DNA from: Cetorhinus maximus
Lineage: Eukaryota
DNA length: 64,000 bases
Assembly: GCF_964194155.1 (NCBI RefSeq)
Contig: NC_135888.1
Location: forward strand, 134,106,001 to 134,170,000
Reading direction: 5' to 3'
This document shows, one piece after another, positions 10,801 through 13,800 of the stretch (position 1 is its first letter; each line of letters begins with the position of its first letter). The notes beneath the pieces were generated by a model. The model saw nothing but the letters and a program-made list of their open reading frames with translations, was not told the DNA's origin and made no database searches. The position numbers were made by a program, and so were the translations under genes.

Positions 10801-13800
10801 TGAAATTTTAAAACAAATAAAATAAAAATCACTGTTGCTGTTTAGCTTTCTTTCATCTTGAACTTTTAATGGGAGGAGAGGAAGCAATTAATGTGAAAGG
10901 GCATGACAGTGGACACGACTACATGGCAGAATGGGCAGCATTTTGTCCTGTATTTTGGTTCATTGAAGTTGCCTGTGGTATAAAGGCACAGAAAGTTTAA
11001 GTGGTGAAGCTGGACTTTGGGCCTGGGTCTCAGTGTAAACAAGATGGAAAAGAAAAGCATTGAAACCCCCAATTATATTGAGCTTCAGACTGAAATATAA
11101 CTAATGTGTGTAAAATTGTTGGCACTATATACTTGTTATTGGGAAGTGCTTAAAACAAACTTTCACCTCTGCCCCTCCAGTTTGCAGTTGACGTTAGATC
11201 ATTAAATTTCTATTATAAATGGATAAACGATAATGAATATGTTCTGTCTTCTTAGAAATCCAACAGTATCATGTACATCAGGATTGCAGTTGGAAGTGCA
11301 AACTACTTCAGCTGAATTGGGACACAGCTGTATTAATTCTGCAGGACCATGTTCATTCTGGACGAGTCCTCTCTAAACTTGATACCGTCCTTTCTTAAAT
11401 AAAATGCCATTAAAGCAGCTGAAAATTCCATTGGAGCTAGGCAGTGAATAAAAGGAAATAGTTGTATGATATTATAGTCCAAATTTCAATTTGATGCTGC
11501 TTATTGATAGGGTGGAGCTGTAACTGGCTGATGTAATGCTGGCTGAAATTACCTCACTCGTACTACAAGGGAAATTGTCACAGAAATGCTCATGCTTTTC
11601 AAATTTGTTCCATTTCTGTTAAATTAAGTTTAGGCATTTATTTGGATCAGGAAAGTTCCAGATGAAGCACAGAACATCAACTGTAGGATTTATGTCAACT
11701 CCAGCATAGCTGCTACTGAGTTTGATTAGATCGATTGGTTGCAAGCTGCAAGTGTATTCTCATAAAGATTTAAACACATTAAAACTCCAAACTCTACGTG
11801 TGATGCAGAATCATTCTTCAACACAAAGCTAGCATCTTCATATTGGCTTTCCTGCCAGTGTTATTGCAGAATATCTTTAAAGTTCTACCCAACATTACCC
11901 GCTTTTATAAGTTGAGTTGATCAATGTCTATTTAATTGGTGTAGTTTTATTATAGTCTGGCTAATGTGAATGTCCACATCCTTTGAACTGATTCTTACTT
12001 AGGAAAGATCGGTTGTTGGCGTAAATGAAATCGTGAAATTCTTTACTCCAGCTTAACCTTCCCCGCTGAGATCTGTGCAATACTGATGGCTATTACCGTG
12101 TTCGGAATGTGTACATGGGTTTGTTGCTGAATTGCTGGCATCCTTGGGACAGGTTGGATGTGACATTGTCAGCTACAGAGAGTTTACATATATAATGTAT
12201 GTATTGGTTGAGAAAAGTGGGAAAATGTGAGCGTGAATTTCAGAGTCCACTCCATGTGGAGTTGGTTCAGAAGCGATAATGAAAGGAGAATTTATAAACT
12301 GTAACAGGACTGGAAGAACGCGGAATATGAAAGCCCCAAAGTGGGTGGAACATTTGTATTACAAGTGTCTACAAACTTGTCAATAATTAATCTTAAAATC
12401 TAGGTGGAATATTTGAAATTGATTAATTGATTGTACCCCACCACCAAGCCATTAGGATATCAAATTTGTGATGGTTGCAATGTTTATTACGGTAGTTAAG
12501 GTAACTACCTTAAGGTAACTTAGCCTTTGTTCTTGATTTTAATAAAATAATACATGAGCTGTAACCATCTATAAGTTACAAAGGACCAGTGACTGGCAAA
12601 AAGTTCTTCCAGACCTGTGTGATTTGAAATCTGTTGTTCAGTTGAGTTAATTATCATTGTTACTCCTCCCCACCATGCTTTGCTGCCACACACACTGTAC
12701 CACTGGCTTAGTGGTAATTGCTGACCAGTTTTCTCCTGTTCCTTCATGCACGATCGATCTGGAAACTCCTTCCCCTTGTGACATATTTTTTGGACCTGGT
12801 GAATTCTGCACTCTGGACGGAATCTGCGGGAATGAAAATTTTAACGGGTGGATTTTAATGGGGCTTGACTGCTAACATTGCTTAATGGGACTTTGATGAT
12901 TATTGGATTTGTGGTGCACATTACCTACATATGCACCGAACTTGAAATCAAAATGAACAAATTTGGAACAATCGTTGCAAAATACTGGTCTGGATATTTC
13001 TGCTACCGGACTCGACACTCTAACATGGCTGCACGGGTGATGTGCTCTTTGCCTAATGAACAGGTGCGTAACTTTTTTTAACAGGTCTGTATATATAGAA
13101 AATGTTTTTAGCTCGTATATCGACTGGTCAAGCACTTAATTTTGTAGCCAACATTTTAGTGCTTATGTGAGCAGCTACATGTATTTGTATGTTGCCTTTA
13201 ACAGAATAAAATATCCCAAAATGCTTCACAGGAACATTGTAAGCCAAAATTTGACCAGAACCACATCAAATGGTATTAGGGCAGATGGCCAAAAGTGTGG
13301 TCAGAGAGTTAGGCTTGAAGGGGCATCTAAAAGGAGAAAAGAGGGGTTTAGGGAAGGAATTCCAGTGCTCAGGGCCCAGGCAGCCGAAGGCATGGCCACC
13401 AATGATGGAGGATGCTCAAGAGGCGTTAGACGGGCGCAGATATCTCTGAGGCCTCTGGTGCTGGTGGAGATTATAGAGAACTATAAAAAAAAATGCAGTA
13501 TATAGAGACTAGAAATTGTTGTCCAAGAATGTATCTTGGAGATTTTAATGTTTACTGTAACTTTACAAAAAAGAATCCCTCCGCTAAGCGTACCTTGTCA
13601 TCTGATCAAGAGCCAACATCGATGGCTTTTGCAGAGAAGTCTGTGACTTTGGATATTTGCCTTCTTGGTTAAAGGAAGACCTGAATGGAGGGAGAAAGGC
13701 CGAGGGCAACTGCTGGGAACTCCATATCCCAAAGCCAGTCTGTTTTCTTTCCACGAAGCAATCAGCCACATTTGCATCACATAAAATCTGTAAAATTAAA

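Follow-up and report, generated by a model that had tools for sequence, protein, structure and literature searches.

An AG-free zone inside the mitochondrial-leader exon of a shark HARS gene and its possible role in two-step exon skipping

The histidine-tRNA ligase gene (HARS) of Cetorhinus maximus has a cassette exon that encodes its mitochondrial leader, and the interior of this exon is a run of 333 nt on the + strand in which the dinucleotide AG does not occur. This raises the question of what could have kept AG out of nearly an entire spliced exon. The run lies in a 64,000-nt stretch of genomic DNA (the window), and unless another locus is named, coordinates refer to positions in that stretch (Table 1). 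HARS is a single-copy gene in this genome: a search with one of its coding exons, which scores best candidates only, gave one match, and the closest named proteins to the HARS of the window are from sharks. Beyond the first common exon, further common exons are found from 17223 and from 18643 on. Just 5' of exon 1 there is a GC-box-like tandem repeat (4562-4739; GGGCGGG units with a period of 18), and introns 1 and 2 contain highly covered, repeat-like sequence (6113-10350 and 15062-17400) that is probably made up of transposon remnants.

The isoform design is published for zebrafish hars, in which exon 2, 309 nt long, can be kept or skipped; when it is kept, the exon 1 frame is stopped, and a second start leads to a mitochondria-localized form (accessible portion of Waldron et al. 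2017, PMC5608375). The shark arrangement resembles this one in having a single gene, a cassette exon directly after exon 1 (352 nt here), and skipping that leads to a cytosolic form with the WHEP domain. The shark cassette exon opens with TGG TAA (12712-12717), which stops the exon 1 frame, and provides a second, in-exon start, the ATG at 12953. The interval from the early stop to this leader ATG contains six other ATGs (within 12718-12952). In addition to the groups given in Table 1, the leader matches the annotated isoform X1 leaders of bichir and sturgeon. By analogy with zebrafish, the leader form would reach the mitochondria, and it is likely that one shark gene supplies the histidine-tRNA ligase of both compartments, cytosol and mitochondria. 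The original prediction, made from the letters of the window, had the zone spanning the mitochondrial-leader exon of HARS. The identity of the segment stands, while its limits have to be redrawn: the exon starts at 12712, 17 nt before the zone, which places the zone in the interior of an internal cassette exon entered via upstream acceptors.

Table 1. Features of the HARS locus that bear on splicing of the cassette exon (positions in the window)
Feature	Position	Strand	Basis or remark
HARS exon 1, coding part (first half of WHEP domain)	4808..4897	+	Ends CAG/GTCAGT; contigs continue into 16495 (X3) or 12712 (X8 and X17)
AG, putative upstream entry acceptor, organism D	12522..12523	+	X11 contig aligned from 12530; 166 of its letters are unplaced
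AG, putative upstream entry acceptor, organism C	12588..12589	+	X9 contig aligned from 12580; 14 of its letters are unplaced
Candidate branchpoint (A 12650) and pyrimidine-rich block for the 12711 acceptor	12646..12686	+	Putative function
Acceptor AG of the cassette exon	12710..12711	+	Exon 1 letters joined here in X8 and X17; X3 piece starts at 12710
Cassette exon of the mitochondrial isoform, 352 nt	12712..13063	+	Contigs; homologous zebrafish design (PMC5608375, accessible portion)
Candidate internal distant branchpoint GCTGAC (A 12724), with AG 12727-12728 too close for use and pyrimidine tract 12729-12745	12720..12745	+	Sequence
AG exclusion zone, 333 nt	12729..13061	+	Sequence, composition statistics, and differences in relatives
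Predicted mitochondrial leader, 37 codons	12953..13063	+	Match to the isoform X1 leaders annotated in sharks, rays, gar, and teleosts
CAG/GTGCGT, donor and proposed dual acceptor/donor	13061..13069	+	Donor used in 4 of 4 runs; acceptor use inferred only
First common exon (second half of WHEP domain)	16495..16584	+	Contig joints

On the + strand, an AG is present at 12727-12728 and the next one at 13062-13063; the second-longest gap between AGs on this strand of the 64-kb window is 128 nt. With 84 A and 73 G among its 333 letters, the zone is expected to contain 18.4 AGs, the exact probability of finding none is 2.4e-11, and the fewest seen in 200,000 shuffles of the zone was 4, which bears out the claim that the run is beyond chance. 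The distribution of AG gaps was also surveyed across 528 kb of the genome, comprising both strands of the window and 20 further stretches. Among the 36,216 gaps in this survey, the zone is an extreme outlier, with a composition-adjusted value of 10^-4.4 for the runner-up; one longer AG-free run was found, a low-complexity stretch of 550 nt in which only 0.6 AG is expected. The depletion is specific to AG, as the counts of GA (25), AA (29), and GG (24) in the zone are not depleted, and neither is that of GAA (10). AAG and GAG, which are seldom used as cryptic acceptors, are both absent (4.6 and 4.0 expected), as scanning for an acceptor predicts.

The depletion extends over the whole zone. Each of three sub-zones is improbable on its own (P = 10^-3.8, 10^-2.8, and 10^-3.9). 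A synonymous-recoding null for the leader codons gives 4.6 expected AGs and a probability of 0.002 for none, and the codons themselves avoid AG as had been claimed, with lysine as AAA (twice), serine as TCT (three times), arginine as CGG or CGA (three times), and glutamate as GAA. AG is likewise missing from those 140 nt of the zone that precede the final stop in the frame of the leader (6.8 expected; P = 10^-3.8). This fits poorly with an alternative offered in the original prediction, namely, that AG is purged to stop exon 1 from fusing into the leader. Just upstream of the cassette exon, AG occurs at the normal frequency (9 versus 8.6 expected in 12524-12711).

AG exclusion in the cassette exon looks selected and is conserved in the differences visible among related organisms. 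Over the exon region, the letters that distinguish the four relatives from the window number 13, 47, 49, and 44. The check on AG depletion in these relatives drew on 40 of 99 rows of differences (11, 25, 31, and 12 listed per organism), which were chosen by the tool, and the tally leaves out deletions in organism E and hidden neighbors; none of the 40 creates an AG in its own carrier, against ~6.5 expected (P ~8e-4). One difference, 13018 C>G in organism B, would give an AG on the background of the window; its carrier is without an A at 13017.

Proteins provide a second test of selection, as an AG is unavoidable wherever K, E, or Q precedes V, A, D, E, or G. Among related sequences, 39 fish HARS leaders were compared, which remained of 48 proteins after removal of 9 (no junction, fragments, or N termini resembling intron read-through), with 3 trimmed to 37 residues. 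None of their 26 internal K, E, or Q residues is part of an AG-forcing pair, versus 16 of 44 in the leaders of seven cartilaginous-fish KARS proteins (P0218 was left out, as it is not a leader). These residues make up 26 of 1395 positions in the HARS leaders versus 44 of 316 in the KARS leaders. Because the HARS cases reduce to ~10 distinct positions (P ~0.04), the proteins, which are the only material from outside sharks, point weakly to AG avoidance there. The last residue before the junction is Q in all of the fish HARS leaders. At the end of exon 1, Q or K is found in each of the 33 fish proteins that could be parsed (of 36) and E in 7 of the 30 tetrapod proteins that could be parsed (of 32), a weak difference. 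A scan of metagenomes for fish hars DNA yielded only one unrelated locus (L029).

The same genome also offers a control. Its KARS leader exon (locus L009, minus strand, 6225-6052), the protein of which matches P0215 and P0219, contains 14 AGs in 174 nt, so that purging is no general trait of leader cassettes. This KARS exon opens with TAG/GT and has a stop no more than three codons later in the exon 1 frame.

The junction data are assembled contigs of related organisms, all of them other than the window's own species, and their status as RNA is guessed. One run from the same species that was likewise guessed to be RNA (X22) was left out, as it shared next to no sequence words with the locus. 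In these contigs, both inclusion and skipping joints exist for the cassette exon. X3 contains the skipping joint 4897^16495 as well as a piece covering 12710-13063, and exon 1 letters directly precede 12710-12711 in X8 and X17 (27 of 28 and 14 of 17 matches, respectively). Position 13063 continues into 16495 in the contigs of all four relatives' runs. Inclusion is minor in X3, with a contig depth of 60.9 versus 697.2 for skipping, depth being a poor measure. A joint from 4897 to 13064 is absent among the 15 of 403 joints listed, which come from assembled contigs that drop rare forms. An exon start at 12729, with the AG at 12727-12728 as the acceptor, was considered and rejected; it is absent from all five contigs that cover the site.

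Contigs from organisms C and D (X9 and X11) begin farther upstream and could be taken for splicing intermediates with intron 1 still attached. Depth arithmetic by bins, which reproduces known lengths (28.0 letters for X8), assigns to the exon 1 bin 158 letters of the X11 contig and 24 letters of the X9 contig, and thus favors longer exon forms joined to exon 1 over intermediates. The two contigs are more likely to represent longer forms of the exon, entered at ~12524 and 12590, and with this reading the sole hint of an intermediate is gone. The letters at 12580-12589 resemble the end of exon 1. Both entries give an early stop (after 8 and 0 codons, respectively). A short inverted repeat (GGTAGTTA..TAACTACC; 12491-12523) is found just before the putative acceptor at 12523 and is without an Rfam match; the Rfam search of 12300-13300 gave 0 matches at E<=1, and the RNA fold of 12640-13090 was no improvement over those of shuffled sequences (z=+1.33).

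At the 5' end of the zone, the original prediction pointed to a branchpoint-like GCTGAC (12720-12725) and a pyrimidine tract (TTTTCTCCTGTTCCTTC; 12729-12745) and, at its 3' end, to CAG/GTGCGT (13061-13069). All three are present in the sequence. Among 11 yTnAy motifs in 12560-13063, GCTGAC has the highest count of downstream pyrimidines (16 of 20), a value that falls below our own cut of 17; the tract after A12724 is only 17 nt long. None of the differences in the 40 of 99 rows listed falls within 12720-12745. The candidate at A12650 has 15 of 20 pyrimidines downstream and fits the 12711 acceptor, and the adjacent block at 12657-12686 is identical in the window, C, and D (30 of 30 letters), although the exon differs by ~13%. 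Further branchpoint-like motifs are found inside the zone at 12875 and 13023 and, like the short tract, weigh against the main reading given below. The block at 12657-12686 also holds an ATG in good start context that opens a nonconserved frame of 66 codons; the corresponding open reading frame (12675-12875) was rejected as a conserved protein, as two inserted T's (12781-12782) in C, D, and E break the frame.

Our tentative reading of this layout is that the zone is the AG exclusion zone (AGEZ) of a distant branchpoint located inside the exon and that the terminal CAG doubles as an acceptor, in a recursive order of splicing. Skipping in two steps, whichever comes first, is on balance probable. 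Exon 1 would have two fates, set by the choice of branchpoint. Branching near 12650 would join exon 1 to 12712 and keep the cassette exon; the exon 1 frame would then stop after one codon, and the leader ATG would give rise to the mitochondrial enzyme, as translation in zebrafish suggests. Branching at 12724 would instead lead the second step to the first usable AG, at 13062-13063, and join exon 1 to 13064. Because CAG is the end of exon 1 as well, this joint would rebuild the donor CAG/GTGCGT, which would be respliced to 16495 to give the cytosolic WHEP form. The mature cytosolic mRNA is identical whether skipping takes one step or two. Any AG arising within the exon would intercept this route, so that mRNA for the cytosolic form would come to contain the leader; a purge across the whole exon would thereby be explained. 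Two points favor the recursive order: the internal tract could be defined by the donor at 13064, as in ordinary exon definition, and exon 1 ends in the same CAG. The role of A12724 as the branchpoint, that of 13062-13063 as an acceptor, and the resplicing are all predicted from sequence.

In verified introns with distant branchpoints (PTB exon 11, GABBR1 exon 23, and alpha-tropomyosin exon 3), the branchpoint and pyrimidine tract are at the AGEZ's 5' end, AGs within 12 to 15 nt of the branch are bypassed, and the first downstream AG is used (accessible portion of Gooding et al. 2006, PMC1431707). The shark zone is like these in being long (333 nt before an AG, compared with at least 150 nt for the class and with 380 and 287 nt for two of the published examples), in having a nearby AG that would be bypassed, and in having a branchpoint motif and an adjacent tract, albeit a short one, at its 5' end. 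In this respect, the original claim of a distant branchpoint and a dual site at 13063 is upheld as to layout (motif, bypassed AG, tract, and no AG thereafter), and the use of the site as an acceptor stays a proposal. Unlike the zones in those accounts, which are intronic and precede the exon, the shark zone sits inside a spliced exon, is partly coding, and ends at a donor.

The terminal site also has the form of a recursive site. Recursive sites, RS-exons, and dual-specificity sites likewise carry YAG/GT, may act as an acceptor and a regenerated donor, and can switch between inclusion and skipping (accessible portions of PMC5126111 and PMC3439910), and CAG/GTGCGT at 13061-13069 is such a composite, with exon 1 ending in CAG as well. 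In the known RS-exons described there, the composite site occupies the 5' end, and the introns around them are very long. The shark site, by contrast, terminates a cassette exon at its 3' end, the interval measures 11.6 kb, and the branchpoint feeding the site would be distant and exonic. A second acceptor-like AG/GT (T7 AACAG/GTCTGT) is found 21 nt past the donor, together with a stop in the exon 1 frame (13064-13090). The 21-nt stretch at 13064-13084 might serve as a very small RS-exon or as another place to land; there was zero contig cover of 13070-13100 in the assembled contigs of the four runs. According to the available text of PMC8184009, regenerated splice sites are repressed by the exon junction complex (EJC), a point against our main reading.

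A different explanation would make the purge defensive. If entry acceptors are weak and variable, internal AGs would be cryptic acceptors that disturb the distance from the short upstream frame to the leader ATG; the terminal CAG would then be a donor only, and skipping would take place in one step. The entry acceptors are indeed modest in pyrimidines (9 to 12 of 20) and seem to differ among the relatives, and one-step skipping requires no new mechanism, 4897^16495 being the main joint in X3. However, the true acceptors of this gene score no higher than the entry acceptors (12, 12, and 15 of 20), and AG density is normal in 12524-12711, which C and D apparently use as exon. With most internal AGs, an early stop and a usable mitochondrial mRNA would result all the same, so that the harm avoided would be small. 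GAG has been purged as well, and the KARS leader exon, which has the same design, is unpurged. We consider a defensive purge unlikely, though not strongly so.

A reverse order of the two steps, which the original prediction leaves out of account, is also conceivable. The intron at 13064-16494 would be removed first, so that the terminal CAG abuts the common exon as a regenerated acceptor, and exon 1 would then take either an upstream acceptor (mitochondrial form) or the junction CAG via the distant branchpoint (cytosolic form), in a manner resembling 3' recursive splicing or intrasplicing. This order relies on the same signals and explains all of the features of the zone equally well. Furthermore, a branchpoint 339 nt away would be expected to escape masking by the junction complex near -24, judging from the available text of PMC8184009. 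The contigs from C and D, however, fit longer exon forms joined to exon 1 better than they fit the intermediate of this pathway, and a second CAG 7 nt into the common exon, present in the window and in the loose ends of the four relatives, could compete with the regenerated acceptor. We regard the reverse order as unlikely.

It is improbable that the zone is a relic or a side effect. The leader may once have been an alternative 3' splice site directly next to the common exon, with an intron gained later at the CAG, for which the Q at the junction end of all of the fish leaders would speak; alternatively, AG-containing splicing enhancers may be avoided to keep inclusion low, in line with the minor inclusion in X3 (60.9 versus 697.2 in contig depth, a poor measure). 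Substitutions avoid AG even in sequences that have diverged by 12 to 13%, which is unlike a relic, and GA (25) and GAA (10) are undepleted. An origin by chance is scarcely credible even in a genome of 4 Gb, since 2.4e-11 for each of ~5.5e8 AG gaps (extrapolated from the 528 kb) amounts to ~0.01 such run per genome, and the run coincides with an exon and persists in relatives.

The isoform switch, AG exclusion zones, recursive and dual-specificity sites, and intrasplicing are all known already. Our literature search, to which subscription papers were largely out of scope, found no description of AG exclusion or multistep splicing for hars, and the accessible portion of the zebrafish account (PMC5608375) makes no mention of AG content, branchpoints, or multistep splicing. 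Intrasplicing of EPB41/4.1R and regenerated 3' splice sites are similar to the mechanism proposed here in that an inner splice creates an outer acceptor (accessible portions of PMC3439910, PMC7373989, bioRxiv 10.1101/159350, and PMC8184009). In the fly example of 3' recursive splicing, as far as the available text of PMC8184009 goes, the site is unconserved and repressed by the EJC, whereas in the shark the signals seem conserved and would decide to which compartment the enzyme goes. Human KARS1, with dual targeting by alternative splicing, likewise places products of one synthetase gene in two compartments by way of a leader in an optional exon (accessible portion of PMC10196762); the KARS leader exon of the shark genome differs from that of HARS in its normal AG content.

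Exon skipping is usually drawn as one splice, and a conserved AGEZ inside an exon would be a signature of two-step skipping that can be searched for in genomes. If the recursive reading is true, single-base gains of AG should shift an essential enzyme between the cytosol and the mitochondria, and regenerated splice sites would be used purposely rather than repressed. If the zone is purely defensive, it is still an unusual constraint on a known isoform switch. The recursive reading would also bear on the several duplications of HARS in tetrapods (accessible portion of PMC5608375). It may be, and we put this forward tentatively, that since the origin of the jawed fishes the essential cytosolic histidine-tRNA ligase mRNA has arisen in two programmed splicing steps that pass through the mitochondrial exon, with a branchpoint switch inside this coding cassette turning its donor CAG into an acceptor, and that the amino acid makeup of the leader has been shaped by this rule.
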